Positions 20,269 through 62,927 are shown, counted from the first letter of the stretch. The stretch: DNA of 64,000 nucleotides from an uncultured Bacilli bacterium (GCA_949451605.1 CASTSB010000003.1:33326-97325); one strand, 5' to 3'. Translations and numbers: made by a program. Notes: generated by a model not told the origin, from the letters alone.

Positions 20269-20279
20269 TATTTAAACTA

Positions 20280-20288: not shown

Positions 20289-20303
20289 TGATAAGGTGAT
20301 TAA

Positions 20304-20960: not shown

Positions 20961-21012
20961 TATTCTTTTTTTTTAACAACTATGTTATATATAATATAAG
21001 GGTGAGGTACAA

Positions 21013-22125: not shown

Positions 22126-22168
22126 AAATAAAGGATTTAAGTTAAAATAGAAAAGAAAGGGTGATAAA

Positions 22169-23686: not shown

Positions 23687-23691
23687 TATTG

Positions 23692-23717
23692 AAACAGTAC
23701 TAACACTACTGTTTTTA
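23692..23717 (+). terminator. intrinsic terminator
   Basis: AAACAGTA-CTAACAC-TACTGTTT followed by TT. Confidence 0.55.
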
Positions 23718-23804
23718 TTGATTTAGAAACTTAATAATGCTATATTAAAATTATAAAGATAAATATTAATACTTATTTTTAATACTAATTTTAAGGAGTA
23801 GTTT

Positions 23805-24950: not shown

Positions 24951-24961
24951 TAATAAATATA

Positions 24962-24970
24962 TGATATAAT
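24962..24970 (+). promoter_or_regulatory. extended -10 element TGATATAAT
   Basis: 22 nt upstream of the ABC ATPase ATG at 24992. Confidence 0.4.
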
Positions 24971-24991
24971 ATTAACAGCTTAGGAGGAGTT

Positions 24992-25735: not shown

Positions 25736-25736
25736 G

Positions 25737-29495: not shown

Positions 29496-29522
29496 AGAAA
29501 TTATTAAAATTTCTCTTTTATT
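29494..29522 (+). terminator. intrinsic terminator
   Basis: AGAGAAATT-ATTAA-AATTTCTCT followed by TTTATTTT. Confidence 0.6.
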
Positions 29523-29584
29523 TTGTTATTTATTTTTACATAAAATAAAAAATATGTTATAAAGATAATATGGGGGAGTTAATT

Positions 29585-30703: not shown

Positions 30704-30757
30704 AAACTTTAAGTTTATATTTATACATGATATACTATTAAATAGGAGCTGTTGTAC

Positions 30758-32404: not shown

Positions 32405-32418
32405 GAGGTAGTAGGTAA

Positions 32419-33387
32419 ATGAAAAAAGAAGTTACATTATATATTGTTATTCCATGTTACAATGAAGAAGAAGTTCTAAATGAAACAACAAGGCAATTAA
32501 AAGAAAAAATAGAAAAACTAATTAAAAATAAAGATATTTCAGATAAAAGTCGTGTAATGTATGTAAATGATGGAAGTAAAGATAGAACTTGGGAAATAAT
32601 TGAAAAAATTAATCAAAAGGAAAAATATTTTACAGGCATTTCCCTTTCAAGAAATAGAGGACATCAAAATGCTTTACTAGCTGGCTTAATGACTGCAAAA
32701 AATTATGCTGATATAGTTATTAGTATGGACGCTGATTTACAAGATGATATTAATGCCATAGATGAAATGATAAAAAAATATAAAGAAGGTAATGAAATTG
32801 TATATGGAGTTAGAAGCTCTAGAACAAAAGATACTTTTTTTAAAAGAACCACAGCTGAAGGATTTTATAAATTTATGAAGTTGATGGGTGTAGAAATAGT
32901 TTTTAATCATGCTGATTATAGATTAACAAGCAAACTAGTTTTAGATCATTTAGAAGAATATGGAGAAGTCAATTTATTTCTAAGAGGAATGTTTCCACTA
33001 ATTGGTTATAAATCGGATAAAGTATTATATGAAAGAAAAGAAAGATTTGCTGGGGAAAGTAAATATCCACTAAAGAAGATGCTTAGCTTTGCATGGGATG
33101 GAATAACATCTTTTTCTATCAAACCTATAACTTTTGTATTCAATTTAGGTATAGCAATATTTATAATAAGTGCTTTAATGCTTTTATATTCATTAATTGT
33201 CAAATTATTAGGAAACACAGTTGAAGGTTGGACATTTATTGTTTGCTCTATATGGCTAGTAGCTGGAATAGAAATGTTCTCATTAGGAATTATTGGAGAA
33301 TATATAGGAAAAATTTATAATGAAACAAAAGCTAGGCCTAGATATATCATTTCTAGAAATTTAAATGAAGAAAAAAGTAAGAATTAG
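32419..33387 (+). CDS. polyprenyl-phosphate glycosyltransferase (GtrB/CsbB/ArnC-like GT2)
   Basis: YIVIPCYNEEEVL...VNDGSKDRTWEII...MDADLQDD, plus two C-terminal TM helices. Confidence 0.8.
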   Translation: MKKEVTLYIVIPCYNEEEVLNETTRQLKEKIEKLIKNKDISDKSRVMYVNDGSKDRTWEIIEKINQKEKYFTGISLSRNRGHQNALLAGLMTAKNYADIVISMDADLQDDINAIDEMIKKYKEGNEIVYGVRSSRTKDTFFKRTTAEGFYKFMKLMGVEIVFNHADYRLTSKLVLDHLEEYGEVNLFLRGMFPLIGYKSDKVLYERKERFAGESKYPLKKMLSFAWDGITSFSIKPITFVFNLGIAIFIISALMLLYSLIVKLLGNTVEGWTFIVCSIWLVAGIEMFSLGIIGEYIGKIYNETKARPRYIISRNLNEEKSKN

Positions 33388-33411
33388 AGTTTATTAAGTA
33401 GAGGTGTAAAT

Positions 33412-34344
33412 ATGAATAAGAAAAAAATAGCAGTTTTAATACCTTGCTATAACGAATCAAAAACTATAGAAAAAGTTATTAAGGATTATAAGTCTGTTTT
33501 ACCAGATGCAGATATTTATGTTTATGATAATAATTCAAGCGATGGAACAGATGAAATTTCAAGAAAAGCTGGTGCTATAGTTAAATATGAATATAAACAA
33601 GGTAAGGGTAATGTAATAAGGAGTATGTTCAAAGATATTGAAGCTGATTGTTACTTAATGATTGATGGTGATGATACCTATCCTAAAGAAAATGCAAAAG
33701 AAATGTGTGACCTTATATTAGAAGGAAAAGCAGATATGGTTATAGGTGATAGATTATCATCAACTTATTTTGAAGAAAATAAAAGACCATTTCATAACTT
33801 TGGAAACGTATTAGTTAGAGGATTAATTAATACATTATTTAAATCTAATGTGAGAGATATAATGACAGGATATAGAGCATTCAGTTATGAATTTGTAAAA
33901 ACATTCCCAGTATTATCAAAAGGTTTTGAAATAGAAACTGAAATGACAATTCATGCATTAGATAAAAATTTCTTATTAAAAGAAATTCCAGTAGGTTATC
34001 GCGATAGACCAGAAGGAAGCGTTTCAAAATTAAATACAGTATCAGATGGCATTAAAGTTTTAAGTACAATTGCCAGACTTTTTAAAGAATACAAACCAAC
34101 TATTTTCTTTGGCTTAATAAGTTTTGTATTTATGTTAATCTCCTTTATATTTGGAGTTCCAGTATTTGTTGAATATTTTAAGACTGGTCTAGTGCCAAGA
34201 TATCCTACACTTATATTCTCTGGATTTATGTTAATGATTTCAATTCTAATGTTTATCTGTGGAATAATATTAGAAGTTGTAGTAAAAAAACATAGACAAC
34301 TATTTGAGCTTATGCTTATAAGGACGAAAAAAAATGATAGATAA
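33412..34344 (+). CDS. second polyprenyl-phosphate glycosyltransferase-like GT2 (GtrB/DPM-synthase-like)
   Basis: AVLIPCYNESKTIEKVI...YDNNSSDGTDEI...MIDGDDTYP, plus two C-terminal TM helices. Confidence 0.7.
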   Translation: MNKKKIAVLIPCYNESKTIEKVIKDYKSVLPDADIYVYDNNSSDGTDEISRKAGAIVKYEYKQGKGNVIRSMFKDIEADCYLMIDGDDTYPKENAKEMCDLILEGKADMVIGDRLSSTYFEENKRPFHNFGNVLVRGLINTLFKSNVRDIMTGYRAFSYEFVKTFPVLSKGFEIETEMTIHALDKNFLLKEIPVGYRDRPEGSVSKLNTVSDGIKVLSTIARLFKEYKPTIFFGLISFVFMLISFIFGVPVFVEYFKTGLVPRYPTLIFSGFMLMISILMFICGIILEVVVKKHRQLFELMLIRTKKNDR

Positions 34345-34732
34345 GATATTTAAAAACAAATTATTAGCACAAATATTTAGATTTGGCATAGTAGGTGGAT
34401 TAGCTTTTGTAGTAGACTTTGCTGTATTAACATTCTGTGTAGAAGTACTTAATTTATCAGAAGCAATCGGTACAGCTTTAGGCTTTACTATTTCAGTAAT
34501 ATTTAATTATATTTTAAGCATATTCTGGGTATTTGATGTTAATAAAGAAAAATCACAGAAAAAGAATTTTGCTATATTTATAATTCTTAGTATAATAGGA
34601 TTACTTCTTACTGAACTAATAATGTGGCTAGGATCTAAAGTCATGGGAATTGATTATAGAATAGTAAAAATAATTGCCACTGCCATTGTAATGGTATTTA
34701 ACTTTATAACAAGAAAAATTTTCTTAGAATAA
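34334..34732 (+). CDS. GtrA family membrane protein (putative lipid-linked sugar flippase)
   Basis: 132 aa with four TMs. FRFGIVGGLAFVVDFAVL GtrA signature. Overlaps the upstream GT2 by 11 nt. Confidence 0.8.
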   Translation: MIDKIFKNKLLAQIFRFGIVGGLAFVVDFAVLTFCVEVLNLSEAIGTALGFTISVIFNYILSIFWVFDVNKEKSQKKNFAIFIILSIIGLLLTELIMWLGSKVMGIDYRIVKIIATAIVMVFNFITRKIFLE

Positions 34733-34777: not shown

Positions 34778-34831
34778 TATATCTGAAAATACTTGCAAAT
34801 ATATATAATAAGAATAATAGAGGTGTTACAA

Positions 34832-35503
34832 ATGAATAATAAAAAACTATTGATAATCATTTTATGTGTGAGTATATTCATACTTTCAATAGGACTTGCT
34901 ACTTTTTCATCTCATTTAAGTATAAAGTCAAGCACAACAGTATCACCAAATCCAGATAACTTTAAAGTAATAGCATCAGCATCAGAAACAGATACTAATG
35001 AAAATATATTGATTCCAAATATTGCAAGATATTCTAGCGCTCCTTCTGATACTCCACTTACTCAAACTGGAACTAATGCAATTATTAAAAATGGACAAAA
35101 TGAAATTAATATTGAAAATTTGTCTATATCATTTGATACCCCTGGTCAAATCGTTAATTATACATTTTATATACATAACATAGGAAGATATAGAACTTAT
35201 CTAAAGTTACATCAAGAGAGTACTAACCCAAAATGTACTGCCTTAGAAGGTACTAATCCAGAAATTATTAAAAAAATATGTCTAGAAGAAATGATTACAA
35301 GTATTTTTTACCGTAATAATGAAACTAAAAGCTGGCTTTGGCTTAATCATAGTGTTAAAAATGTATTTATAGAGCCAGGAGAAGTTATGAAGCTTATGAT
35401 ATCATTTACTTATAAATCAGAAAAAAATTTAAGAGCAGATGGACCATTTAATATTGATTATGGCAATATTGGAATAAATTTTTCTACTGCTATGTTTGAA
35501 TAA
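34832..35503 (+). CDS. small secreted protein with SipW-class-like N-terminus (TasA/camelysin-like candidate)
   Basis: ATG at 34832 follows AGAGGTG. MNNKKLLIIILCVSIFILSIGLATFSSHLSIKS, then a beta-rich domain of about 190 aa. Flanked by terminators on both sides. Confidence 0.45.
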   Translation: MNNKKLLIIILCVSIFILSIGLATFSSHLSIKSSTTVSPNPDNFKVIASASETDTNENILIPNIARYSSAPSDTPLTQTGTNAIIKNGQNEINIENLSISFDTPGQIVNYTFYIHNIGRYRTYLKLHQESTNPKCTALEGTNPEIIKKICLEEMITSIFYRNNETKSWLWLNHSVKNVFIEPGEVMKLMISFTYKSEKNLRADGPFNIDYGNIGINFSTAMFE

Positions 35504-35602: not shown

Positions 35603-36700
35603 ATGAAATTAAAAATAACTAAAAATCTAGTTCCTGTTTTATTAGTAGGAGGAATACTAGTATACGGAGCATCAAAGACTCTTAAGCCAAACAATAAAGA
35701 AAATAATAATATTGTTAATCAAATAGTTGAAGAAGAGATAACAAATGAAGAGAAAACAATTGAAAACATTGTTAATCAAGTAATAGAAGAATCTATAAAA
35801 GAAGAAAAACCAAAACAAGAATCAATTGTAGAAAAACCAATTAAAGAAGAAGCTAAAATAGAAGCAATAAATGGATTAGAAATAGAAACTAAGAAAGTAG
35901 TAACTGCAACAACTACTGTTAATATAAGAGAAGCTGCAACAACTGATAGTAAGAAACTTTCAACACTAGGTAGTGGAAATTCGCTAGATTTAATTTATGA
36001 AGCAAATGATGAATGGTATAAAGTAAAATATAATGAAGGTGAAGCTTATATCTCTAAAGCTTATTCCAAAGTAGAAGAGAAAAAAGAAATTCTTAATCCA
36101 TTAGAAAAAATAGTTTACTTTACAAAGGATTCAAACTTATTTGATAATTCTTCTAAAGAAGTAATCCAAAATATTCCAAAATTAGAAGCAGCAAAAGTAT
36201 ATAAAGATTTAGAAGATTATTATATAGCAGAGGTAAATGGCAACATTGGATTAATAAGTAAAAATGATACTGAAGATTTAAAAGATACATTTGTTATTGT
36301 GGATATTTCAGATCAAATGGCTTATCTTTATGAAAATAACGAATTATTAGTAGAAACAAAAGTAGTAACAGGTAAACCTTCAACTCCAACAACAAAAGGT
36401 TTACATGAAGTTTGGGATATCTCTGCAAATAGATATTTAAGAGGTGCAGACTACAAGGTGTATGTTGATGTAATGATGGCTTTCCATAATGGAGAAGGAT
36501 TACATGATGCAGAATATCATACTCATTATAATCAAGATGGAACTAAAGCATTTAGTCATGGTTGGAGAGGAAGTAATTCCTTTGGTGGAGACTTATATAA
36601 AACAGGTGGTTCCCACGGATGTGTAAATATGCCACATGATGCTGCTATGACAATGTATAATAAAATAAAACTTAAAGATAAAGTTTTAGTAAAAGAATAA
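35603..36700 (+). CDS. L,D-transpeptidase (YkuD family) with SH3b-like domain
   Basis: N-terminal TM, Glu/Lys-rich spacer, SH3b-like VNIREAATTDSKKLSTLGSGNSLDLIYEANDEWYKVKY, and YkuD catalytic box GGSHGCVNMP. Confidence 0.8.
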   Translation: MKLKITKNLVPVLLVGGILVYGASKTLKPNNKENNNIVNQIVEEEITNEEKTIENIVNQVIEESIKEEKPKQESIVEKPIKEEAKIEAINGLEIETKKVVTATTTVNIREAATTDSKKLSTLGSGNSLDLIYEANDEWYKVKYNEGEAYISKAYSKVEEKKEILNPLEKIVYFTKDSNLFDNSSKEVIQNIPKLEAAKVYKDLEDYYIAEVNGNIGLISKNDTEDLKDTFVIVDISDQMAYLYENNELLVETKVVTGKPSTPTTKGLHEVWDISANRYLRGADYKVYVDVMMAFHNGEGLHDAEYHTHYNQDGTKAFSHGWRGSNSFGGDLYKTGGSHGCVNMPHDAAMTMYNKIKLKDKVLVKE

Positions 36701-39334: not shown

Positions 39335-40570
39335 ATGATGAACTTTGTAAATATTACAGAAGAAGAATATGAAAAATTTTGGGAAAGTCACCCATGTAAA
39401 ACTTTTCTATCTAGTCCTAAAATTAGTAATCTACGAGAAAAGTCAAATTGGAAAACATATTTTGTCGGTGTAAAAGAAAGTGAAAAATTAATTGCCGCAA
39501 GTATGTTATTTTCTCACAAAAGACACTTTGGAGTAAATGAGTTCTATTCACCAAGAGGTCTTTTATTAGATTATAATAATGAGAAATTATTAAATTATTT
39601 TGTAAAAGAATTAAAGAAATTTGTAAAAGATAAAAAAGGCTATGTTTTAAGAATAGATCCATATGTTATCTATAAAGAAAGAGATATAGACGGAAACATA
39701 GTTGAAGGTGGTATTAATAACACTAAAGTTATTGATAATTTGAAAAAGTTAGGATTTAAGAAAGTTAGAAAAGAAGAAAAAGAACAAGTTGGATGGATGT
39801 TTTCTTTGAATTTGGAAGGAAAAACAGAGGAAGATATTTTAAAAGAGATGAAACCTAACACAAGAAATACGATTAGAAAAGCAGAAAAGATAGGTATTGA
39901 TGTTAAAGAAATATCCTATGAAGAACTGGATGAATTTCAAAAGATAATGATAGAAACAGGAGAAAGAAAAGGTTTCCACGTTAGAGATTTATCATATTTT
40001 CAAGAAATGTACAAACTTTTTTCCGATACAAATGAAGTTAAATATTATATTACTTCTCTTGATTTGGAGAATTATTCAAATTCTTTAGAAAATGAAAAAA
40101 AGGAAAAAGAAGAGAAAATTAGTTTATTAAGTGACGCTAAATATAATGAAGGACAAAAGAAAAATCTAAATAATGAAATTTTATCATTAGAGAAAAGAAT
40201 TGAAGAAGCTAAAGAAATAATGAAAAATACAGGCAAGAAAGTTATTAATTTATCAGGATCAATGTTTATGTTAATAAAACCTGAAGTTATATACTTGTCT
40301 AGTGGAAACTATGAAGAGTATATGAAATTTAATTCACAATACTTAATACAATGGGAACTTATAAAATATGGAATAAAAAATGGTTTCAAAAAGCACAATT
40401 TTTATGGAATTCCAGAGGATATTAATACTCATCCAAAAGATTATGGAATTTACGAATTTAAAAGAGGCTTTAATGGATATGTAGAAGAATTGATTGGGGA
40501 ATATGAATTACCAATAACTTTTCATTACAAAATATTTAAACTAATACACAAAATAAAAGGAGTAAAGTAG
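39335..40570 (+). CDS. FemAB family peptidoglycan interpeptide-bridge aminoacyltransferase
   Basis: N-terminus FVNITEEEYEKFWESHPCKTFLSSPKISNL, central coiled-coil insert, and C-terminal YGIYEFKRGFNG, typical of FemX/FemA/MurM proteins. The alternative ATG at 39338 is equally possible. Confidence 0.8.
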   Translation: MMNFVNITEEEYEKFWESHPCKTFLSSPKISNLREKSNWKTYFVGVKESEKLIAASMLFSHKRHFGVNEFYSPRGLLLDYNNEKLLNYFVKELKKFVKDKKGYVLRIDPYVIYKERDIDGNIVEGGINNTKVIDNLKKLGFKKVRKEEKEQVGWMFSLNLEGKTEEDILKEMKPNTRNTIRKAEKIGIDVKEISYEELDEFQKIMIETGERKGFHVRDLSYFQEMYKLFSDTNEVKYYITSLDLENYSNSLENEKKEKEEKISLLSDAKYNEGQKKNLNNEILSLEKRIEEAKEIMKNTGKKVINLSGSMFMLIKPEVIYLSSGNYEEYMKFNSQYLIQWELIKYGIKNGFKKHNFYGIPEDINTHPKDYGIYEFKRGFNGYVEELIGEYELPITFHYKIFKLIHKIKGVK

Positions 40571-44190: not shown

Positions 44191-44432
44191 ATATTCACCC
44201 CTCATGATTGGATATTATATCATATTTTTATTATTTTTTCAATTTCTATTCGAGTACCGCAAAATATATTATGTATTTTAGAAAAAGAACTTTTATTTTT
44301 AATTTAACAAAAAATAATTAAAACATATTTAAAAAAAAACTTTGATGTGATAAAATTATCTTATAATAGCGATAAGAATAATCGGGGAAGGAATGTATGC
44401 TAGTTTTTTAACAGCAGACAAGTATTTTAATT

Positions 44433-45599
44433 ATGTCAAAAAGAAAGTACAATAATATATTAATCTTAGCATTATTTGCATTTTATATAATTTATTATAA
44501 AATTTTTATTTCTGCAAGTAAATTAGAGTATAGTGAGTTTATTAATGTAGCAGTTATTGCGATCATATCTTTTATTGCAGTATTATTGCTTGGATATCGA
44601 AAAGATAGAATAAATGATACAAAAAAATCAATTTTAAAAACTGTTTTAACAGACATTGTTATATTTTTAATAGTATCTTATGCTTTAGGAACAGTAACTG
44701 GTTTTACTACTAATGAAAATAATTATGAATTATCAATGATTATTAAAAATATATTTGCTCCTATTTGCTATATTGGAGTAATAGAACTATTTAGATATGT
44801 AACTGTTAATGCAAATTCTGATAAAAAAATTACAGTTTATTTAATAACAGCAGTTATTATTCTACTAGAGCTTGCAATGAATTTAAATGGTGTACTAATG
44901 TACAATTTTGAAACTACATTTAGAGCTATTTCTATGATTGTATTACCAATCATTATCAAAAATGCAACTTTAAGTTATTTAGCAATATATGGAGGTTTAA
45001 AATCTACTATATTGTACAGACTAATACTAGATCTATATGCATATATTTTACCAGCTATACCAAATTTAGGAGATTACATAACTTCTGTTATTGGTGTTCT
45101 TTTACCTACAATGGTTTATATTCATTCATCAAGAATTGTAGATAACGCAAATAGTATCGAGATTCTTGATGCAGAAGATGACAAAAAATCAAAGAAAAAA
45201 ATAAATATTAGTGATATTATTGTAACAATAATAATTATTCTTTTAGTAGGTTTAATTTCAGGCTACTTTAAATTTGCCATCATTGGAGTAGGATCTGGAT
45301 CAATGTCACCAGAAATAGAAAAAGGTGATGCAGTAGTTTATAAAAAAATTAAAAATAAAGAAGAATTAAAAGTAAACGATATATTAGTTTTCCAAAGTGG
45401 TAATAAAATAGTAATCCACAGATTAGTTGAAATTAAAAATAGTGGTGGAAAAACTTATTATATTACTAAAGGTGATGCTAATAATGGAAGAGATGGATTA
45501 AATCTAACTTTAGAAAATATCAAAGGAAAGGTAATGTTTAAGATAAAATATTTAGCTTATCCAAACTTATTCTTAAAAGATTTAGTAGATAAGGAGTAA
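44433..45599 (+). CDS. SipW-type (S26B, ER/archaeal-type) signal peptidase I fused to a ~260-aa polytopic N-terminal domain
   Basis: C-terminal boxes GSGSMSPEIEKGDAVV (Ser), IVIHRLVEI (His) and ITKGDANNGRDG (Asp), preceded by at least six hydrophobic segments. Confidence 0.7.
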   Translation: MSKRKYNNILILALFAFYIIYYKIFISASKLEYSEFINVAVIAIISFIAVLLLGYRKDRINDTKKSILKTVLTDIVIFLIVSYALGTVTGFTTNENNYELSMIIKNIFAPICYIGVIELFRYVTVNANSDKKITVYLITAVIILLELAMNLNGVLMYNFETTFRAISMIVLPIIIKNATLSYLAIYGGLKSTILYRLILDLYAYILPAIPNLGDYITSVIGVLLPTMVYIHSSRIVDNANSIEILDAEDDKKSKKKINISDIIVTIIIILLVGLISGYFKFAIIGVGSGSMSPEIEKGDAVVYKKIKNKEELKVNDILVFQSGNKIVIHRLVEIKNSGGKTYYITKGDANNGRDGLNLTLENIKGKVMFKIKYLAYPNLFLKDLVDKE

Positions 45600-45603
45600 A
45601 AAA

Positions 45604-46512
45604 ATGAAAAGGGAATTAAAAATAGGGGCATTGTCTTTACTTTTAATAGCACTTATTGGAATATCTATTTATTTATATTCCATAGGCTACTTAAATTTTG
45701 TAATTATAACAGCAACTTTTTCTGTAATTAACTTAATAATTTTAATTAATGTTATTATATCTACTAGATCAGAAGAAAGTCTTTATAATAGTAAAGTTAA
45801 ACAAATATTAAGAACATATGATGCTATTTTAGTAAAGAGTAATAATCATCCAAAGATTGATGAAAAAAATATAATTATAGTTGAGACATTTGAAGACTTA
45901 GTTGATGCACAAATGGAATTAAGGAAACCTATATATTATCAACAACAAACTGAATCATGTTCATTTGTTCTTTTAGATAATACTGAAGCCTGTGTATTTA
46001 TATTAAAGAAAAACCCATCTGTTGTCTGTCCTTTAGAAATAACTTTAAATGAAATAGAAATAAGGAATAATAGTGAATCAAAAAAAGAAGATTTACCAGA
46101 TGAGCTATTACAAAATATAGAGAAAACTACTATTGTTAGAGTAGGCAAAGGTCAATATTTAAAAGTTTCTCCTTTAAGAAAAAAGAAAGAGAAAAAAGAA
46201 GATTTATCTAATGAAACAATGGACTCAACTATTAAAAGAGAAGAAGAGATTCAACAACCAGCCATGAAAGAGGAAAATACTTCTCCAACAATTCCGACTG
46301 TACAAGAAAATATAGAAATTAAAAATCAACAACCAATAGTAGAAGTACCAGTAGAAAAAACAAATGACATACCAGTCGTACATGAAGAAGAGGTAACTGA
46401 TAATACATTATATAATGCAGAGCCACAAATAATTAAGAGTATGCCAACTGATATGCATTTAAATGAGCAAAAACAAGAATCAATAAAAGAAATTGAAGTC
46501 CTTGATTTATAA
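45604..46512 (+). CDS. hypothetical 2-TM membrane protein with Glu/Gln/Pro-rich tail, co-transcribed with the SipW-like gene
   Basis: AAGGAG RBS. Start is 4 nt after the upstream stop. Two N-terminal TMs, a globular region of about 130 aa, then a low-complexity acidic tail. Confidence 0.5.
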   Translation: MKRELKIGALSLLLIALIGISIYLYSIGYLNFVIITATFSVINLIILINVIISTRSEESLYNSKVKQILRTYDAILVKSNNHPKIDEKNIIIVETFEDLVDAQMELRKPIYYQQQTESCSFVLLDNTEACVFILKKNPSVVCPLEITLNEIEIRNNSESKKEDLPDELLQNIEKTTIVRVGKGQYLKVSPLRKKKEKKEDLSNETMDSTIKREEEIQQPAMKEENTSPTIPTVQENIEIKNQQPIVEVPVEKTNDIPVVHEEEVTDNTLYNAEPQIIKSMPTDMHLNEQKQESIKEIEVLDL

Positions 46513-46515
46513 CAA

Positions 46516-46538
46516 AAATAGTCTTATGACTATTTTTT
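46516..46538 (+). terminator. intrinsic terminator after the sipW-like operon
   Basis: AAATAGTC-TTAT-GACTATTT followed by TTT. Confidence 0.55.
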
Positions 46539-46618
46539 ATTTTTCTAAATATTGATAGAAACTATATAATTTGTTATACTAAATTAATAGAGTAAAGATG
46601 AATGAAAGGGATTTAATT

Positions 46619-49135
46619 ATGGATAAAAGTACACTAGATAAGCTAATTACAAATAAAAATTTATCTATCTTAATAGTGATTTTTGTTATGGCAATAAGCT
46701 TTGGTTATGCTGCTTTTAATTCTGTATTAAATATAACAGGAACGTATGCAGATGTGCGTATAAAACAAGATATTAGAATAACTGGCATTAGAACTAATAG
46801 TGCAACAAGCAGTGGTTCATCAACTTATGAAGATTATAATAAAAGTAGTATTAAAATAGGTACAATTCTACCAAATAGTAATTCCACTATAACTTATGAA
46901 GTTGATATTACCAATCTTGGAAATACCGAAATGGGAATATATCAAATAAATAATCTTCCATCTAATTTAGAATATTCGCTTTCTGATTATGAAGAAGGTA
47001 CAAAGCTTTGTGTAGATACAAAATGCTCTTTAGGAGTAACAAAAACTATAAAAATAACAATTAAATACAAAAATAATGGATTTAATTCTACTACAACAAC
47101 GTATAATTTAAAATTAGATTTTGATTTTCAAAGATTTTATAATGTTACCTATAATACAAAAACTGGTGCAAATAAATCAGATAGTGCAATAGGAAAAGGC
47201 ACATATGTTTTAGATTTTTCAAAAGAAGAAGCAAAGCCAAATAGTGTATCATCTATAAAAATGGCAGGTTCAAATATTTCGAATTATTCTTATAATTCTA
47301 GTACAGGAATTTTATCTATCCCTAATGTTACAGGAGATATTCAAATAACTGCTAGTTATAAAGTTGACTGTTTAAAAGCTTCTCCTCGAGGTTCTGGAGA
47401 TTATTATAGCAATTCATATCTAGATTTACCAATAAAAAGAAAAGAAATTGAAGCTGTAACTTTTAATAATACCAAATTAGTACCTGAAGGATTATCTAGC
47501 TACGATGTTTCAGAGGATGGAAATGGAAGTATACTTGCATATTATCTTGATGAAGACAACAATGGTCTATATGAATTATACATAGGACAAGATGGTGGAG
47601 TAAAAGCTAATAAAAACTCTGAATGGCTATTTGCATATTTTAAGAATCTTAAAAATATTAACTTAAAATATTTAGATACAAGCGAAGTTACTAATATGTA
47701 TTATCTTTTTCTCCAATGTGAAAGTCTAACAACTTTAGATGTAAGTACATTAATTACTGATAATGTCACTAATATGGTAGGGATGTTTTCTACTTGTAAA
47801 AACTTAACTTCATTAGATTTAAGTAATTTTAATACTATTAATGTAAATAATATGAGCGAAATGTTTTATCAAGATTATAAATTATCTAATCTTAATGTTT
47901 CTTATTTTAATACAGAAAAGGTAACTCAAATAAGATTAATGTTTTCATATTGTTCAAGTTTAACATCTCTAGATATAACAAATTTTATTACAAAAAAAGT
48001 TAATAATATGGATTCAACATTTAAAAATTGTAGTAGCCTAGAATCTTTAGATTTAAGCAATTTTACAACTGAGAAAGTTTCATTTTTAGGAAATTTATTT
48101 TCATATTGTGAAAAGCTGAATAATTTGAATATAAGAAATGATTTTGTAAAATCCAATATAACAAATATTAAAGCAATGTTTAATAGCTGTAAAAGTTTAA
48201 CTACTCTTGATCTATCTCAATGGGATACAAGTAATGTAACAGATATGAGTAATTTATTTAATCATTGTGATAAACTTACCTCATTAAACTTTTATAATAT
48301 TAATACAAATAAAGTAACAAATATGAGTTCCTTTTTTAGTTATTGCAGTGCTTTACCAGAAAGTAATTTAGTTGGAATAGTAAGTAAATTTAATACAATT
48401 AATGTTACTGATATGTCTTATATGTTTCATTGGTGTACTCAATTAAACAATCTAGATTTATCACATTTCAATACTGAAAAGGTAACAACTATGTCTTATA
48501 TGTTTTTTGTCTGTTCTAACTTATCCACTTTAAATATTAGTAGTTTTAACACAAGTAATGTTACAAGTATGGCAGGAATGTTTTATAATTTTAGAAAAAT
48601 GGACACAATTAATCTTTCCCACTTTGATACATCTAAAGTAACATCGATGTATGATATGTTTGCCAATTCTAGTTACAAATCTTTAGATATTAGTAACTTT
48701 GATTTAAGTAGTTTAAAAAGTATGGGAGAAATGTTTGCTTACAATCGTTTATTAACTAGTATAAATATTAATGGAATAGATACTTCAAATGTTACAAATA
48801 TGAAAAGATTATTTCGAGAGTGCGAAAGTTTAGAAAATATAAACATAAGACATTTTAAAACTGCAAACGTTACAGATATGAGTGAAATGTTTTATAAATG
48901 TACTAATTTAAAAACCATCAATATTGCAAGTACAACTTTTGAATTTAAAAAAGAGTATGATGAAGCAACACAAACTACTAATTTTTTAGTAACTGTTACT
49001 AATATGTTTGCAGAGTGTCCAAATCTTCAAAAGTTATATATTTATGATATATTACAAATGGCTATTTTAAATCAAATATATCCAGGATTTACAAGTTTAC
49101 CTTTTGAACCTATCCAAGATGGAGAACCAAGTTAA
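46619..49135 (+). CDS. secreted BspA/DUF285-type leucine-rich-repeat protein with TasA-like SipW-class N-terminus
   Basis: N-terminus ...ILIVIFVMAISFGYAAFNSVLNITG. About 16-17 repeats of 25 aa (LDxSxFNTxxVTxMxxMFxxCxxL). An alternative ATG at 46598 is in frame. Confidence 0.7.
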   Translation: MDKSTLDKLITNKNLSILIVIFVMAISFGYAAFNSVLNITGTYADVRIKQDIRITGIRTNSATSSGSSTYEDYNKSSIKIGTILPNSNSTITYEVDITNLGNTEMGIYQINNLPSNLEYSLSDYEEGTKLCVDTKCSLGVTKTIKITIKYKNNGFNSTTTTYNLKLDFDFQRFYNVTYNTKTGANKSDSAIGKGTYVLDFSKEEAKPNSVSSIKMAGSNISNYSYNSSTGILSIPNVTGDIQITASYKVDCLKASPRGSGDYYSNSYLDLPIKRKEIEAVTFNNTKLVPEGLSSYDVSEDGNGSILAYYLDEDNNGLYELYIGQDGGVKANKNSEWLFAYFKNLKNINLKYLDTSEVTNMYYLFLQCESLTTLDVSTLITDNVTNMVGMFSTCKNLTSLDLSNFNTINVNNMSEMFYQDYKLSNLNVSYFNTEKVTQIRLMFSYCSSLTSLDITNFITKKVNNMDSTFKNCSSLESLDLSNFTTEKVSFLGNLFSYCEKLNNLNIRNDFVKSNITNIKAMFNSCKSLTTLDLSQWDTSNVTDMSNLFNHCDKLTSLNFYNINTNKVTNMSSFFSYCSALPESNLVGIVSKFNTINVTDMSYMFHWCTQLNNLDLSHFNTEKVTTMSYMFFVCSNLSTLNISSFNTSNVTSMAGMFYNFRKMDTINLSHFDTSKVTSMYDMFANSSYKSLDISNFDLSSLKSMGEMFAYNRLLTSININGIDTSNVTNMKRLFRECESLENINIRHFKTANVTDMSEMFYKCTNLKTINIASTTFEFKKEYDEATQTTNFLVTVTNMFAECPNLQKLYIYDILQMAILNQIYPGFTSLPFEPIQDGEPS
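47645..49040 (+). repeat. ~75-nt periodic coding repeat array (DUF285/BspA-type LRR)
   Basis: Recurring ...(T/N)NM(S/x)xMF..C..L..L(D/N)(L/I)S.F(N/D)T..V... units, counted as 16-17 by eye. Confidence 0.7.
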
Positions 49136-55102: not shown

Positions 55103-57949
55103 ATGAAGAGAAAAAGTAAATTGAAATATTTTAGTTTATTATTAGTAGTAATATTTATAGGTATTGGTTATGCATTTTTATCTACTAACTTAGAAATAAA
55201 TGGTATTTCTATTATGAAGAGAAGTGTTTGGGACTTACACTTTGAAAATATAGTGGATGATTATGAAAAAGCAGTTATTGATATTCCAGCTTCTATTAGT
55301 AGGGACAGGTTATCAGTAAATTTTGAAGTAACACTAAATAACCCAGGAGATGAATACTACTTTTATGTTGATGTAGTAAATGATGGAACAATCGATGTAA
55401 TGTTAAATAACTACTTGTTCTCGGGACTATCTACAGAACAAGAAAAACTAATTAGTACAACTCTAACTTATAATGATGGAGTAGCGGTTAATAAATATGA
55501 TTTACTAAAAGAGAATTCTTTTGACACTTTAAAGGTAAGTGTTAAGTTTAGAGAAGATATAGAAGTAAGTGATCTACCAACTACTAAGAGTGACTTTAAT
55601 TTATCACTTGAAGTAAACTTTGATCAAGCAGATTCAAATGCTAAAGAAAGAGAACATATAGCGGATGTCACACCTCCTAGAATTAAGTTTATTAAAGTAA
55701 ATGACAATTCAGGAAATGATGAGTGGAGTAAAGATATAAGGCTTCTAGTAAAGATCGTAGATGAATCAAAAATAAAAGAAGCCAAATATTGTATCACAAC
55801 ACCAGATAATGAGTGCGAACCAACAGAAGTCCCAGAAGAGTTACAAAACACATCATTTTACTTTACATTTCCAGAATCAGATACAGAACAAAGACTATGT
55901 GTAAAGGCAACAGATACAAACGATAACTCAAAAACAACCTGTACAACAGAAAGTTATCTAGTAGATGGAGAAGATCCAGTAATAAAAAATGTTAATCTAA
56001 CAAAAGAAAACAATTCAATTACAGTAGAAGTAGATGCAGAAGATAAACAATCAGGAATCTATATGTATTATTATTCAAAGGATTCAGGAGAAACATATAT
56101 ACCAAGCATCTATCCAAACTATACCTTTACTGGATTAGATAATGATGACTATTTAATAACAATGTATACAGAAGATGTAGCTGGAAACAAGTCTGCAGTA
56201 ACTGCCAAAAACTCAACAGTAAGAAGTGGTAATTTCTGTAAAAGTAATGGTCTAACTAATCTAAGTGACTGTCTATTAGCTCAAGAGACAAGAGATGCCA
56301 ATATTGTTTCTGCAAAATCAAAAATAGAGGCAAAAGAAACTCCTAACTTTAATGATGTTAGTCCTAAAATAACATATGGCGAAAAAGAAATGCCAAAAGT
56401 AAGCGTTTATAAAGCTTCTACATCCCAATCATTTTATTTAAGTGATGGCTCTAGCTATTCTTATAATTATTATTATGTAGGTACAGATTATCAACTTAAT
56501 ACCTCAACTGGACAATTTACTTTAAAAAATACAAAGCAAATTAAAGATTTTGGTGACTTAGACAATCAAAATAATACTTACTATATGTGCGGATCACAAT
56601 ATAGTAGTTCTTGTAGCACAATGTTTAAAATAATATCAATAGACTTTTTAGAAGAAACTAATACTGATTATAGTTTTTATACTACCAAAGTTTTAAAGTT
56701 TAATATTACAAAATATGATATAACATATAAAGAATTAAAATATGATTCAAAAGAGACTGGAATGTATTCAATAGAAGATGATTTAGGAACAAGCTATTAT
56801 TACCGTGGAGCAGTGGAAGGAAACATCGTTAAATTTGGTGACTTCTACTGGAAAATAACACGAATAAATGGTGATGGAACAATAAGAATGATATTCTATG
56901 GAACATCTCCAACTACAGATAGTCAAGTAAGTGTGCAATATTATACTCCTAATAATAGTTTTTATAGATATGATCCAACCTATATGGGAATTATGTTTAA
57001 TAACGAAGATTTTGGTGAAGAGTTAAAACCTACTGTATCAACATATACAGGGTTTGAAGACAAATCTACTACATCCTATGTATATTCTAAATCTTATACA
57101 TATAATAGGGAAAATTCAACATTTAGCTTAGACTTAACAGAGGGAAATTATATTAAAGGTATATGGAAAGATACTTACGAAGAAATACTTAATAATGGAT
57201 ATATCTACACATGTGCTACTACTTCAACAACAGCTTCTGCAAATACTTGTCGAAAAATAAAAAAAGTCACTAGATATGAATATAATGAAAAACAAAAGCA
57301 ACATAGAATGTATTATACAGATTATCTTACTTCATCAACATCTTACGAGAATGCTGTAAAAAATGTTAAAAAGTCACAGTTATTAATAAAACTAGATGAA
57401 TGGTTTGAAACAAACATAAAAACTAAAACCGATTCAAATTCTAATAGTTTGCTAGAATATTTATCTGATGGAATTTTCTGTAATGATAGAAGTTTTTATT
57501 CAGGAAATGGATATTATAGCTATGGTTCAATGATTTATTATAACGGTTATGGAAGGCTTAAAAATAATATGCCAAGTCTACTTTGTGTAAATCAAAATGA
57601 TAGATTTACCGAGTCTGATACAACTAATGGAAATGGTGCTTTAGAAAATAGAGTTGGTCTAATAACAGCTGATGAAGTAGAATTATCTGGAGTAAACAAC
57701 AATACTTCTTATAAAAACAATCATTATTTCTTAAAATGGGGAAGTAGATCATTTTGGACAATTACTCCATACTATGATAATGGCGACAATGAATATGTAT
57801 ATAAAGCATATTCTTCTGGAGGTATTTCCAGTGAGCATATAGGAAATAGCGGTCATATTCGCCCAGTAATAAACTTAAAAGCAAATACAAAGATTGTAAG
57901 TGGAGAAGGAACAACAGATTCACCATTTGAAATAACCTTAGGAAATTAG
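55103..57949 (+). CDS. large secreted protein: SipW-class N-terminus + conserved N-domain + Ig-like modules + shared C-terminal module
   Basis: ...LLLVVIFIGIGYAFLSTNLEING. N-domain VWDLHFENI / PGDEYYFYVDVVNDGTIDVML. C-module YYYRGAVEGNIVKFGDFYWKITRINGDGTIRMIFYG ... IRPVINLK ... SGEGTTDSPFEI. Confidence 0.6.
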   Translation: MKRKSKLKYFSLLLVVIFIGIGYAFLSTNLEINGISIMKRSVWDLHFENIVDDYEKAVIDIPASISRDRLSVNFEVTLNNPGDEYYFYVDVVNDGTIDVMLNNYLFSGLSTEQEKLISTTLTYNDGVAVNKYDLLKENSFDTLKVSVKFREDIEVSDLPTTKSDFNLSLEVNFDQADSNAKEREHIADVTPPRIKFIKVNDNSGNDEWSKDIRLLVKIVDESKIKEAKYCITTPDNECEPTEVPEELQNTSFYFTFPESDTEQRLCVKATDTNDNSKTTCTTESYLVDGEDPVIKNVNLTKENNSITVEVDAEDKQSGIYMYYYSKDSGETYIPSIYPNYTFTGLDNDDYLITMYTEDVAGNKSAVTAKNSTVRSGNFCKSNGLTNLSDCLLAQETRDANIVSAKSKIEAKETPNFNDVSPKITYGEKEMPKVSVYKASTSQSFYLSDGSSYSYNYYYVGTDYQLNTSTGQFTLKNTKQIKDFGDLDNQNNTYYMCGSQYSSSCSTMFKIISIDFLEETNTDYSFYTTKVLKFNITKYDITYKELKYDSKETGMYSIEDDLGTSYYYRGAVEGNIVKFGDFYWKITRINGDGTIRMIFYGTSPTTDSQVSVQYYTPNNSFYRYDPTYMGIMFNNEDFGEELKPTVSTYTGFEDKSTTSYVYSKSYTYNRENSTFSLDLTEGNYIKGIWKDTYEEILNNGYIYTCATTSTTASANTCRKIKKVTRYEYNEKQKQHRMYYTDYLTSSTSYENAVKNVKKSQLLIKLDEWFETNIKTKTDSNSNSLLEYLSDGIFCNDRSFYSGNGYYSYGSMIYYNGYGRLKNNMPSLLCVNQNDRFTESDTTNGNGALENRVGLITADEVELSGVNNNTSYKNNHYFLKWGSRSFWTITPYYDNGDNEYVYKAYSSGGISSEHIGNSGHIRPVINLKANTKIVSGEGTTDSPFEITLGN

Positions 57950-60137: not shown

Positions 60138-61598
60138 ATGTTAAGATCTGAAAGAAAAGTAAAAAATATTATATTAGTAACGCTATTTTCGTTCTTCTTT
60201 ATAGGTGTAGGCTATGCATTAATTTCATCTAACCTAAGTATTAGAGGTACACTTGAAGTTAATAAGGCTACATGGGATATTCATCTTGCTAATGTTGTAA
60301 TGAATGAGAACAATACTGTAAGTGCAACACCTACTTTAGTGAATAATGATACAGGAATAAATTATTCTCTAAAATTAGCTGCTCCTGGAGATTTCTATTC
60401 ATTTACCGTAGACGTTGTAAATAGTGGAACTTTAAATGCTATGTTGACAGATATAAATGCTGCAGGATTAACTGCAGATCAAGCTAATGTTATTAATTAC
60501 ACAGTTACATATGAAAATGGAATTTTACCACAAGAAAAAGATTCACTTCAAAAAGATTCTTCAAAAACTTTAGTAGTGACAGTAAGTTATAAAGAGGATA
60601 TCACCGCTGATCAATTATTAGATGCAGATATTCCACTAAACTTAAGATTAGAGATATCATATGCCCAAGATGATGGGACAAGTAAAAAAGTACCAGAGAC
60701 TTTAAACGATGTTATGGCAAGAAATGCAGTTTTAGATGATCAAGCAAGTGAATTTGTTACTGCCCAGACAGGAATCGACTTTAGTGCTCATTATTCAGAA
60801 ACAAATGGAAATGGTATATATGAATATTCCAATAGTAAAAATCAAGAATATCCAATTTATTATTACAGAGGAAATATTCAAAATAATAATGTTATCTTTA
60901 ATAATTTCTGTTGGAAAATAGTAAGAACAACAGATACTGGAGGAGTAAAGTTATTATACAATGGTCTTTTATCTTCTGATAATAAATGTGACAATACAGG
61001 AAATGCAACAAATTTAAGCTCTTATTCCCAATTTATGCCAAACAATGAATTAAGGTACATAGGATATACTTATGAAGTTGATGGTGTTGAGAAAGATTCT
61101 TTAGTCAAAAATCTGATTGAAACATGGTATGAAAATAATATGAGTACTGTATCAGATAAATTAGAAGATACTATTTACTGTAATAGTCCAACAGGTGGAA
61201 ATAAAAATATTGCTAATAAAGATACTTTATTTACATGTAATAACAAAAATGAAAGTTATACAGTAAGTAATAATTTGGGTAATCAGAAATTAAAATATAA
61301 AATTGGATTATTAACAGTAAAAGAAAGTGTTGCAGCAGGTGGAAGATATATGCCGGGAACACCACAACCTGAAACTTATTTATCTAATGCAACGGCATAT
61401 TGGACTATGTCTCCTCGTGATAATGAACCAGCTACAGAAGGAAATATGTCAACAATACATTATATAGAAGCAAATGGTTCTGGTGGGGCAGGATCTAGTA
61501 ATAATAGTCATAAGCTTAGACCAGTAATCTCACTTAAAAATGGCCTTAAATTTACAAAAGGTACAGGAGAAATAAATAATCCATATTTTATTGGATAA
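60138..61598 (+). CDS. secreted protein: SipW-class N-terminus + conserved N-domain + shared C-terminal module
   Basis: ...LFSFFFIGVGYALISSNLSIRG. TWDIHLANV / PGDFYSFTVDVVNSGTLNAML. YYYRGNIQNNNVIFNNFCWKIVRTTDTGGVKLLYNG ... LRPVISLK ... KGTGEINNPYFIG. Confidence 0.6.
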   Translation: MLRSERKVKNIILVTLFSFFFIGVGYALISSNLSIRGTLEVNKATWDIHLANVVMNENNTVSATPTLVNNDTGINYSLKLAAPGDFYSFTVDVVNSGTLNAMLTDINAAGLTADQANVINYTVTYENGILPQEKDSLQKDSSKTLVVTVSYKEDITADQLLDADIPLNLRLEISYAQDDGTSKKVPETLNDVMARNAVLDDQASEFVTAQTGIDFSAHYSETNGNGIYEYSNSKNQEYPIYYYRGNIQNNNVIFNNFCWKIVRTTDTGGVKLLYNGLLSSDNKCDNTGNATNLSSYSQFMPNNELRYIGYTYEVDGVEKDSLVKNLIETWYENNMSTVSDKLEDTIYCNSPTGGNKNIANKDTLFTCNNKNESYTVSNNLGNQKLKYKIGLLTVKESVAAGGRYMPGTPQPETYLSNATAYWTMSPRDNEPATEGNMSTIHYIEANGSGGAGSSNNSHKLRPVISLKNGLKFTKGTGEINNPYFIG

Positions 61599-61622: not shown

Positions 61623-62927
61623 ATGAAAATAGGTAATGTAGAAATAAAGAAAAATTATATTATAGTCTTGAGCGTAATTATACTAGTAGTTTCACTAGCG
61701 TTAGGTTATAGCCTTTTATATAGTGATCTAAACTATCAAGCAAATGTTACTGTTAAAAACTATAAATGTAATCAGGAAAATCTTTATGAAAGATTAACTT
61801 GTTTATCAACTTATGATAATACTCCAAGTAAAAATGTTAAAAGTTATTCTGGAATAGATTATAATGATATATCATCAGATACTAATGGCAAAGGATTATA
61901 TACTCTATCAGAAACTTTGGATACAGCAAATCCAATTCGTTATTTTAGAGGAAACGTAAAAAATAATAATCTCAAATTCGCATCTAGTTGTTGGAAAATA
62001 ATTAGAACTACTTCAACAGGTGGGATTAAATTAATATATAATGGAAAGCCAAATGATAAAGGAATTTGCGAAGAAAATGGAGTAAGTATTGGAAGCTACG
62101 CTTTTAATGATGAAAATCTATCAGTTTCAGATACTTCTTATATGTATGGAAAAACATATGAAATAAAAGAAAAAATTATGGAAAATACTGAAATTGTTTA
62201 TGGTAATACTGTAAATTGGAATAATGAGACAAACACTTATACAATTTCTGATGAAGTAATTAGTTCATCTTGGTCAAATGATCATAATAATTTAAAGAAT
62301 AAGTATACATGCTTTAATAATGAAACGACTTGTGAAAAAGTAAATTATATTTCTGAATCTAATGATCCTGCTAAAGCTATTTATATTGAATTAGCATTAG
62401 GAGAAACAAAAGAAAATATTTATGAAAATATTTCAACAAATGAAAATTCATCATCTATCAAAACTATACTTGATAAATGGTATGAAGATAATATAAAGGC
62501 ATTTGAAAATAATTTAGAAGATACCTTATATTGTAATGATAGAACATCGCTTAATGGAAATGCAAAAAAAGAAATGATATTTGCTTGTCCAAATAAAGCA
62601 GATTCTTTCAGTACAAAAGAAGAAAATGGAAATGCAAAATTAACTTATCCAATTGCTTTATTAACTAAAGAAGAAATTATATTATCAGGCTTAAATACAG
62701 AAAAGGAAAATACTAATTATCTTACAACTAATTCAAACATTTTAACTATGACACCAGCAAAGATAAATATAAATGAATCAAAAATGGTTATTATATCAAG
62801 TATGAATAAAATTGATTCATTAAAATCTACTGAAAAAGCTGAAATAAAACCTGTTATATCATTAAAAAAAGATACTTTAATAGTAAGTGGTACAGGAACA
62901 TTAGATGATCCTTATATAATTGGATAG
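61623..62927 (+). CDS. secreted protein: SipW-class N-terminus directly joined to the shared C-terminal module
   Basis: ...LVVSLALGYSLLYSDLNYQ. RYFRGNVKNNNLKFASSCWKIIRTTSTGGIKLIYNG ... IKPVISLK ... SGTGTLDDPYIIG. Lacks the ~150-aa N-domain. Confidence 0.6.
   Translation: MKIGNVEIKKNYIIVLSVIILVVSLALGYSLLYSDLNYQANVTVKNYKCNQENLYERLTCLSTYDNTPSKNVKSYSGIDYNDISSDTNGKGLYTLSETLDTANPIRYFRGNVKNNNLKFASSCWKIIRTTSTGGIKLIYNGKPNDKGICEENGVSIGSYAFNDENLSVSDTSYMYGKTYEIKEKIMENTEIVYGNTVNWNNETNTYTISDEVISSSWSNDHNNLKNKYTCFNNETTCEKVNYISESNDPAKAIYIELALGETKENIYENISTNENSSSIKTILDKWYEDNIKAFENNLEDTLYCNDRTSLNGNAKKEMIFACPNKADSFSTKEENGNAKLTYPIALLTKEEIILSGLNTEKENTNYLTTNSNILTMTPAKININESKMVIISSMNKIDSLKSTEKAEIKPVISLKKDTLIVSGTGTLDDPYIIG

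Follow-up and report, generated by a model that had tools for sequence, protein, structure and literature searches.

In the present study, a 64,000-nt stretch of DNA from an uncultured Bacilli bacterium (GCA_949451605.1 CASTSB010000003.1:33326-97325; hereafter the window), very AT-rich with a G+C content of about 25%, was found to encode two adjacent genes that probably constitute a dedicated signal-peptide-processing unit for surface proteins of the TasA/AbpX superfamily. The first gene encodes a signal peptidase I (SPase I) of 388 residues, in which a catalytic domain of the endoplasmic reticulum (ER)/archaeal type is fused to a polytopic N-terminal membrane domain (N-domain), and the second encodes a 302-residue protein of the DUF5305 family (Table 1). 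A preprint of January 2026 already describes an SPase I with ten transmembrane (TM) helices at AbpX loci, with DUF5305 as a proposed accessory subunit that is sometimes fused to the peptidase (bioRxiv 10.64898/2026.01.04.697558), and therefore the window locus is not a new kind of system; it is a divergent bacterial variant of this recently noticed cassette of polytopic SPase I, DUF5305 and AbpX. How the extra helices fold or what they do is not discussed in the same preprint, which does not mention Rce1 or CPBP. What is new here is a suggestive likeness, seen in structural models, of the N-domain to the Rce1/CPBP fold, with an invariant Glu-x-x-Arg motif and without the catalytic His.

The C-terminal domain is, by its sequence, an ER/archaeal-type signal peptidase I (TIGR02228; MEROPS S26B-like) with predicted activity. 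The Ser, His and Asp boxes reported in an earlier reading of this DNA, made from the sequence alone (the sequence-only reading), are present in the order given there, as GSGSMSPEIEKGD, IVIHRLVEI and ITKGDANNGRDG, within the last ~125 residues of the open reading frame (ORF). In hidden Markov model (HMM) searches, residues 261-382 scored 94.1 bits on TIGR02228 sigpep_I_arch (cutoff 51.85), and the match of the domain to Pfam S26, at 26.6 bits, was just over the cutoff of 22.9. The nearest solved sequences are human SEC11A and SEC11C (E 8e-6), and in the alignment with these proteins the SGSMxP, HR and GDxNxxD boxes coincide with the Ser, His and Asp boxes. Ten residues of the peptidase domain (S290, M291, G298, D299, H329, R330, G347, D348, N350 and D354) are invariant in 85 aligned homologues, which gives a Ser-His rather than a Ser-Lys pair together with two conserved Asp residues in the ER-type order. 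When the full-length model was searched with Foldseek, matches of the peptidase domain to SipA and SpsB dominated. The protein ends in a short amphipathic helix, without a C-terminal TM helix. The label "SipW-type" used in the sequence-only reading is thus apt for an ER/archaeal-type peptidase related to TIGR02228 and SEC11A/C, but it does not extend to orthology with SipW, which was rejected because the score on the SipW equivalog NF046067 was 66.3 bits, below the cutoff of 190.

The fusion of this peptidase to a polytopic domain, also claimed in that reading, is genuine. A homologue search that covered 5.8 billion proteins yielded 383 relatives; the top ~118 are 370-391 residues long, 34-59% identical and aligned over 99-100% of the query, and a 99%-identical protein in the same gene order was present in two independent samples and sequencing runs. 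A profile of the N-domain alone, searched against 1.84 billion cluster representatives, matched 1,338 representatives at E≤1e-3 and 829 at E≤1e-10, so that the family comprises at least 1,338 clusters at 50% identity; the best 150 of the 1,338 matches are almost all 365-395 residues long and essentially all fusions, and the shorter entries among these 150 look like fragments. In 80 related loci compared with the window (denoted by L-numbers below), a local HMM found the N-domain only in ORFs that also carry the peptidase domain. The possibility that an artefact, a frameshift or a misassembly joined two genes deserves practically no credence: the identical ORF came from two independent samples, hundreds of homologues match it in length and are colinear across the junction, and the AlphaFold2 model of the whole chain has a predicted template-modelling score (pTM) of 0.82. 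These observations refute the artefact, and nothing was found in its favour.

The family is widespread. A scan of one genome per species located the fusion, among bacteria, in gut metagenome-assembled genomes (MAGs) labelled Firmicutes, Mollicutes, Tenericutes and Bacilli, in Clostridia, in Desulfovirgula and in Chloroflexota and, among Archaea, in Bathyarchaeia, Desulfurococcales, Thermoproteota, Methanosuratincola and Methanobacteriota. The N-domain HMM matches peptidases of archaeal loci (L047, L050, L052 and L055) and of Chloroflexota (L045, L046 and L058) at 1e-8 to 1e-17, and the genes adjoining these peptidases are AbpX-like (AAW[ST]E...). AbpX homologues have been described in Bacillota and Chloroflexota (bioRxiv 10.64898/2026.01.04.697558), and homologous loci are also present in Thermoproteota. 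Two irregularities were seen among the relatives. One entry of 812 residues (P0252) combines the N-domain with a partial S26 domain, a calcineurin-like phosphoesterase and a 5'-nucleotidase C-terminal domain, and is probably a gene-call or assembly chimera rather than an odd fusion. In addition, cassettes of near-identical organization occur in MAGs labelled Saccharibacteria or Muribaculaceae (L008, L010, L014, L017, L031, L057 and others); these labels fit poorly with a gene content that is low in GC and of the Bacilli type, and the MAGs may have been mis-binned or mislabelled.

The N-domain was modelled as a bundle of eight helices. The AlphaFold2 model of the full chain, built with 85 sequences, has a mean predicted local distance difference test score (pLDDT) of 87 and places helices at residues 2-29, 34-53, 62-89, 100-127, 132-150, 159-186, 189-205 and 213-245, followed by a low-confidence Lys-rich linker, the anchor helix and the beta-rich catalytic domain. 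The at least six hydrophobic segments counted in the sequence-only reading therefore hold as evidence of a polytopic domain but were an undercount, and with the anchor the window peptidase has nine TM helices in total; a tenth, C-terminal TM helix is present only in some archaeal members, and the bacterial members stop after the peptidase domain. Clusters of Lys and Arg lie at the N-terminus and in the segments 54-61, 128-132, 187-188 and 246-258, and from this positive-inside pattern over nine helices we infer that the N-terminus is inside and that the catalytic domain, behind its TM anchor, would be extracytoplasmic. The membrane-domain residues invariant in the 85 homologues are G86, E118, R121, P172, Y195, R196 and P210. 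Across the whole family, including Archaea, E118 (codon 44784-44786) is the sole invariant polar residue and R121 (codon 44793-44795) is near-invariant, which defines an E-x-x-R motif on helix 4; K176/N177 on helix 6 are conserved in the close family, and Y195/R196 lie on helix 7. Given this topology, all three pairs would be placed in the cytoplasmic half of the bilayer. The external loops of the modelled domain are very short. No conserved His was found anywhere in the N-domain in any member, and an exosortase/archaeosortase identity was rejected on the absence of a conserved Cys or His.

What this domain resembles was addressed by sequence and by structure. When the full protein and 54 isolated N-domains were compared with Pfam and NCBIfam at E≤10, only scattered single hits and no recurrent family were obtained for the N-domain, and PF02517 (CPBP) matched none of the 54 at this threshold. 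The N-domain profile returned only noise (E>1) against all PDB sequences, and CPBP proteins, sought by regular expression in the 80 loci, were not found. In the full-length Foldseek search, the peptidase dominated, with Rce1 and APH-1 no higher than ranks 30-33, and the N-domain was therefore modelled alone (pLDDT 86, pTM 0.84). The sole PDB entries with a template-modelling (TM) score above 0.5 were then three chains of Methanococcus maripaludis Rce1 (4cad), which matched with TM scores of 0.53-0.55 over ~260 aligned columns and a probability of 0.60-0.97; APH-1B was next at 0.33-0.36, and all others were below 0.3. APH-1 was reportedly proposed by Pei et al. in 2011 to derive from type II CAAX (Rce1-like) proteases. 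In CPBP enzymes, the catalytic Glu-Glu pair lies on TM4 as motif 1 (E-E-x-x-x-R), motif 2 is F-x-x-x-H, and motif 3 (H-x-x-x-N/D) provides the His...Asn on TM7 (PMC11980579). The N-domain carries a single Glu on helix 4, in E118-x-x-R121, with a spacing that differs from motif 1; no member of the N-domain family has the His and Asn of motifs 2 and 3, and helix 7 carries Y195-R196. No family match has thus emerged for a domain in which the sequence-only reading could name no motif, and the models are suggestive of an Rce1/CPBP-like topology that keeps the helix-4 Glu and Arg without the rest of the catalytic set.

The protein encoded by the second gene, previously regarded as unknown, belongs to the DUF5305 family. 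It scored 45.6 bits on PF17231 (cutoff 29), with a match confined to profile positions 120-212 of 217. DUF5305 proteins consist of TM1, an extracellular beta-sandwich, TM2 and a cytoplasmic alpha/beta domain (bioRxiv 10.64898/2026.01.04.697558); correspondingly, in our alignment the usual homologue of 340-410 residues has TM1, an outside domain of ~200 residues, TM2 and the cytoplasmic domain. This ~200-residue ectodomain is missing in the window protein and in its closest relatives, L002 and L003, all of which keep the cytoplasmic domain after two TM helices without an interval and add a clade-specific segment at the C-terminus. The two adjacent TM helices and the Glu-rich tail of the earlier description were both recovered: the helices, at about residues 7-27 and 30-53, form a hairpin back to back, followed by the conserved cytoplasmic domain, a clade-specific C-terminal segment and a tail of 107 residues in which Glu is the commonest residue (20/107). 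Because this clade has naturally lost the ectodomain, what is conserved in DUF5305 is arguably not an extracellular function; the protein would act together with the N-domain at the membrane or on its cytoplasmic side.

Association of the two genes with AbpX-like proteins is conserved. Synteny was counted in loci with enough sequence (54 downstream and 51 upstream of the fusion), with 36 short SipW-like peptidases as contrast. A DUF5305 gene lies directly 3' of the fusion in 46 of the 54 loci, as expected of the operon-like pair that had been proposed, and an iterated local search found one elsewhere in the locus in three more. Directly 5', a small AbpX-like gene is present in 43/51 loci. By contrast, neither a DUF5305 gene nor a small AbpX-like gene adjoins any of the short SipW-like peptidases (0/36 for each). 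The upstream small protein is 160-240 residues long in most loci, with a signal that ends in ...[LV]G[FY]A followed by A-F-S-x-x-L-x-I-x-S/G, and the gene after DUF5305 often encodes a large protein that has this N-terminus as well. In the window, an unrelated minus-strand ORF occupies the slot directly 5' of the peptidase. Several further arrangements were observed in single loci. Two full cassettes of small subunit, polytopic peptidase and DUF5305, with or without the large protein, lie near each other on one contig in L010 (9350-19928) and L014 (2298-13694), which suggests duplication with separate substrate sets. In L032, the polytopic cassette and a short SipW-like peptidase of 173 residues, flanked by proteins with TasA/camelysin-like signals (...GTTFAYFTS...), lie ~8 kb apart on the same contig (6172-9285 and 13135-17590), and therefore two dedicated peptidase systems co-exist in one genome. 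A P-type signal peptidase (SGPSMxxT, 185 residues) is encoded 3.5 kb 5' of the polytopic one in L004 (5782-6339), which fits with a polytopic peptidase that is not the housekeeping enzyme. In L009 (5455-6443), genes resembling those of type IV pilins (...KGFTLVELLVV...) are located ~3 kb 5' of the cassette.

The window encodes four candidate substrates and a fifth, possible one, and those that carry the N-terminal domain are, by sequence, proteins of the AbpX/TasA superfamily. The 236-residue protein is the homologue of the usual upstream small subunit. A profile built on the small subunits also matched the 845-residue protein (8.2e-21), the 948-residue protein (6.2e-29) and the 486-residue protein (7.8e-35), so that an AbpX-like domain of ~180 residues opens three large proteins and is carried by four window proteins in all. 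The TasA-motif substrate that the sequence-only reading had placed at 46619 is this 845-residue protein, whose first ~200 residues match the profile of a family linked to AbpX and TasA; its repeats scored 356 bits on TIGR02167 and 255 bits on DUF285. The 434-residue protein encoded from 61623 did not match the small-subunit profile over an AbpX-like domain and has only the signal and donor strand in common with the others; similarly, its counterpart in L002 matches only the signal/donor-strand part. Against the PDB, the small-subunit profile with all members matched AbpX (9sj2, E 1e-14; 9rhp, 1.6e-10), and, with archaeal members included, TasA (5of1/8aur) at E ~3e-3; a bacterial-only profile including the window domains still matched AbpX (E 4.2e-5). 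In the alignment, the strand just after the predicted cleavage site corresponds to the donor strand of AbpX (WSETLSLSAT). Each of the five predicted sites has Gly at -3 and either Ala or Ser at -1. Position 2 of the donor strand (P2') is Phe in the 236- and 845-residue proteins and Leu or Ile in the other three; an aromatic P2' leads to poor cleavage by LepB, which is why TasA requires SipW (PMC10269814). Type IV-pilin-like (class III) signals were considered and rejected on the position of the conserved motif, which lies after and not before the hydrophobic stretch. The C-termini of the 948-, 486- and 434-residue proteins share the motif ...[RK]PVI[SN]LK(8-12 residues)G-x-GT-x-x-x-P[FY]-x-I-(x)-G, which suggests a common domain, possibly for attachment. 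Small subunits of L008 (9177-9869), L017 (9174-9878) and L031 (4699-5409), from MAGs labelled Saccharibacteria, have a very basic N-terminal extension of 35-45 residues before the hydrophobic core, and such long n-extensions may be handled by cytoplasm-facing parts of the machinery. The signal of AbpX from P. abyssi is 54 residues long (bioRxiv 10.64898/2026.01.04.697558).

Herein, we propose a scheme of cleavage, specificity and polymerization, with roles for the N-domain and DUF5305, for the processing of these proteins. Substrates would enter the membrane by the Sec pathway, with an N-terminal signal that ends in a small-x-small site, [LIV]-G-[FY]-[AS], followed directly by the amphipathic beta-strand A-F-S/N-x-x-L-x-I-x-G, the counterpart of the donor strand in AbpX and TasA polymerization. 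The extracytoplasmic domain with Ser290 and His329 would cut at this site and free the donor strand, upon which the 236-residue subunit could polymerize by donor-strand complementation. The large proteins share the N-terminal domain of the subunit and carry adhesin-like modules, so the 845-, 948- and 486-residue proteins might be incorporated into the fibre as tip or accessory subunits. By analogy with APH-1 in gamma-secretase, the N-domain is most likely a non-catalytic docking module, which would bind the signal helix or the basic n-region and present it to the peptidase.

Several observations weigh against this scheme. The small subunit lies 9.6 kb from the peptidase and is not adjacent to it. 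Position 4 of the donor strand is Ser, Thr or Asn in the window proteins and not acidic; an acidic residue at this position has been tied to Ca2+-dependent assembly of AbpX (bioRxiv 10.64898/2026.01.04.697558), and its replacement means that fibre assembly may differ or not occur. The SipW-cognate signal model TIGR04088 did not match any of the five N-terminal segments at E≤10, and an LPXTG cell-wall anchor was sought in the window and not found. As for the fold, the Foldseek E values for 4cad are non-significant (0.34-2.6), the root-mean-square deviation is 6.3-7.1 Å, and no sequence method ties the N-domain to CPBP. Furthermore, we know of no polytopic SPase I for which cleavage, a fibre or an interaction has so far been observed.

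Other explanations of the same data were considered. The N-domain might be an active Glu-type intramembrane protease of Rce1/CPBP descent, making the protein a bifunctional signal peptidase/signal-peptide peptidase in which the outer Ser/His site would free the donor strand and Glu118 would clear the leftover signal peptide or recut the basic n-region. Rce1 is the only fold match with a TM score above 0.5, the invariant Glu118 and near-invariant Arg121 lie on the helix that bears the catalytic Glu-Glu-x-x-x-Arg in CPBP enzymes, the conserved polar residues would fall within the cytoplasmic half of the bilayer, the basic n-region is very long in some substrates, and a precedent is offered by myxosortase, a CPBP enzyme acting in protein sorting (PMC11980579). 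Nevertheless, we consider this activity unlikely, given that the motif 2/3 His and Asn are absent in every member, the motif is E-x-x-R instead of E-E-x-x-x-R, PF02517 is matched by none of the 54 members and the structural matches have non-significant E values. Slightly less probable still is the full form of this idea, in which a working His-less Rce1/CPBP descendant is one half of a two-active-site machine with DUF5305 as its cytoplasmic regulator; the Ser/His site would work at the outer face, and the Glu site, at the inner face, would dispose of the signal anchor or trim it further. If true, a family of intramembrane proteases would gain a new catalytic variant, and a signal peptidase would be joined in a prokaryote to a signal-peptide peptidase.

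A role in assembly or anchoring is more doubtful again. In that case, the polytopic domain and DUF5305 would form a platform that holds the fibre base or the first subunit, or gates polymerization, as has been proposed comparably for TapA or AbpB elsewhere. Conservation of the three-gene group is tight, the fibres need some means of retention when the window holds no wall anchor or sortase signal, and the preprint knows of no anchor for the AbpX fibril (bioRxiv 10.64898/2026.01.04.697558); but the DUF5305 protein of this lineage lacks the extracellular domain, the short external loops of the N-domain leave hardly anything on the outside that could hold a fibre, and the conserved residues are on the cytoplasmic side. 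The strict synteny with AbpX-like and DUF5305 genes, which is absent for short signal peptidases, makes it very improbable that the protein is a general signal peptidase with an elaborate lineage-specific membrane anchor and ordinary substrates as neighbours. ER-type signal peptidases are housekeeping enzymes in Archaea, and no second signal peptidase gene is present within the 64-kb window, both of which would fit a general enzyme; related loci nevertheless carry an additional peptidase nearby (P-type in L004, short SipW-type in L032), and the whole cassette occurs in two tandem copies in L010 and L014. A dedicated processing unit with a docking N-domain thus continues to be the explanation that we favour. 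In essence, both the observations and the interpretation of the sequence-only reading are upheld, with docking, export or anchoring of substrates, suggested there for the extra membrane domain, as possible roles.

Compared with known systems, the window locus is closest to the AbpX-associated ten-TM SPase I, with which it has in common the family, the TIGR02228-type domain, the DUF5305 neighbour and the AbpX-like subunits with a putative donor strand directly after the cleavage site. It differs in that its peptidase has nine TM helices and no C-terminal one, its DUF5305 protein is devoid of the extracellular beta-sandwich, its donor strand lacks the acidic position 4 and its small subunit is unlinked from the operon; moreover, its candidate substrates are mostly large multidomain proteins, one with PARCEL repeats, and it comes from an uncultured Bacilli lineage of gut type with a low G+C content (25%). 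The tapA-sipW-tasA operon of B. subtilis similarly encodes an ER-type Ser/His peptidase together with TasA-superfamily substrates with an aromatic P2', and cleavage there exposes the donor strand, which in the window is only predicted; however, SipW has a simple anchor without the 8-TM domain, and the accessory protein is TapA instead of DUF5305. In the Tafi system of haloarchaea, the peptidase TafD, with four TM helices, has the DUF5305 protein TafG as its partner, and deletion of tafD blocks processing of the major subunit TafA (PMC11821415). Tafi thus also places a signal peptidase and a DUF5305 protein beside donor-strand fibre subunits, but TafD has an extra C-terminal outside domain in place of the N-terminal 8-TM module, and Tafi substrates use the Tat pathway. 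The N-domain would resemble Rce1/CPBP in the overall topology of an 8-helix bundle, and it has a conserved Glu (+Arg) on helix 4, in E-x-x-R in place of E-E-x-x-x-R, but it is fused to a serine peptidase and lacks the motif 2/3 His/Asn and similarity at the HMM level. The eukaryotic signal peptidase complex likewise combines a SEC11A/C-like catalytic domain with extra membrane-embedded parts, and DUF5305 has been likened to its accessory parts (bioRxiv 10.64898/2026.01.04.697558); however, no homology of SPC12/22/25 to the N-domain or DUF5305 was detected, and the extra membrane part in the window is fused and not a separate subunit.

The arrangement of the two genes is that of a small operon (Table 1). 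The DUF5305 gene starts at 45604, 4 nt past the TAA of the peptidase, with its own AAGGAG, as previously read; this AAGGAG lies inside the end of the peptidase ORF. The DUF5305 gene is followed by a hairpin with a T-run and by a promoter-like site before the next gene, and therefore the two genes look bicistronic. The hairpin was missed by a terminator scan because its stem is poor in G-C pairs, and a promoter scan of the region was uninformative (53 sites against 50 expected in shuffled sequence). The peptidase ATG has no Shine-Dalgarno sequence immediately 5'; a strong GGGGAAGGAA lies 40 nt 5' of the ATG, within 44384-44435, and is followed by an in-frame mini-ORF of four codons (ATG CTA GTT TTT TAA, 44397-44411), which may serve as a leader or for coupling, or may have arisen by chance. 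A long same-strand gene run 5' of the small subunit (~15974-34732) resembles, by N-terminal sequences, a cell-wall polysaccharide cluster, with RmlA-like, glycosyltransferase, ABC exporter pair and GtrA-like genes, and 3' of this run are an L,D-transpeptidase gene (35603-36700; Pfam YkuD, checked) and then a FemAB-like gene (39335-40570).

Table 1. Features of the polytopic signal peptidase locus and its candidate substrates, numbered from the first letter of the window.
Feature	Coordinates	Strand	Remarks
Small AbpX-like subunit	34793..35503	+	236 aa, likely start 34832; signal ...SIGLA|TFSSHLSIKSS; homologue of usual upstream gene
Polytopic signal peptidase I gene	44433..45599	+	388 aa; 8-TM N-domain, TM anchor, ER/archaeal-type catalytic domain
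8-helix membrane domain	44433..45182	+	residues 1-250; from AlphaFold2 helices, conservation, Foldseek
TM anchor and catalytic domain	45198..45599	+	residues 256-388; anchor helix 259-276
Predicted catalytic residues	Ser290 45300-45302; His329 45417-45419; Asp348 45474-45476; Asp354 45492-45494	+	invariant alignment columns
Shine-Dalgarno AAGGAG of DUF5305 gene	45591..45596	+	inside peptidase ORF end; direct sequence reading
DUF5305-family accessory gene	45604..46512	+	302 aa
AT-rich hairpin AAAAATAGTC-TTAT-GACTATTTTT then T-run	46514..46545	+	terminator-like, operon end; sequence reading
Promoter-like TTGATA-17-TATACT, extended -10 TG	46552..46580	+	upstream of adhesin gene; consensus match only
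PARCEL/DUF285 candidate substrate	46598..49135	+	845 aa, likely ATG 46619; ...ISFGYA|AFNSVLNITG; AbpX-like N-domain ~20-201
Candidate substrate	55103..57949	+	948 aa; ...GIGYA|FLSTNLEING; AbpX-like N-domain 10-179
Candidate substrate	60138..61598	+	486 aa; ...GVGYA|LISSNLSIRG; AbpX-like N-domain 11-186
Possible substrate	61623..62927	+	434 aa; ...LALGYS|LLYSDLNYQ; same signal type

Donor-strand fibres of the TasA superfamily (TasA, AbpA, AbpX, Tafi, cannulae and threads) are an emerging scaffold of biofilm formation and adhesion in both bacteria and archaea. The module of polytopic SPase I and DUF5305 belongs to a large family that extends from Archaea to Firmicutes, and its N-domain has no Pfam model and is not known to have been studied experimentally; in uncultured low-GC gut-type Bacilli the module is abundant and tied to large adhesin-like proteins. 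The natural loss of the DUF5305 ectodomain points to a role on the membrane or cytoplasmic side, and the single invariant Glu-x-x-Arg in a candidate Rce1-like fold is a target for point mutants that makes the function directly testable. Should this module control how gut commensals display adhesins, it would also provide a specific handle on their colonization.

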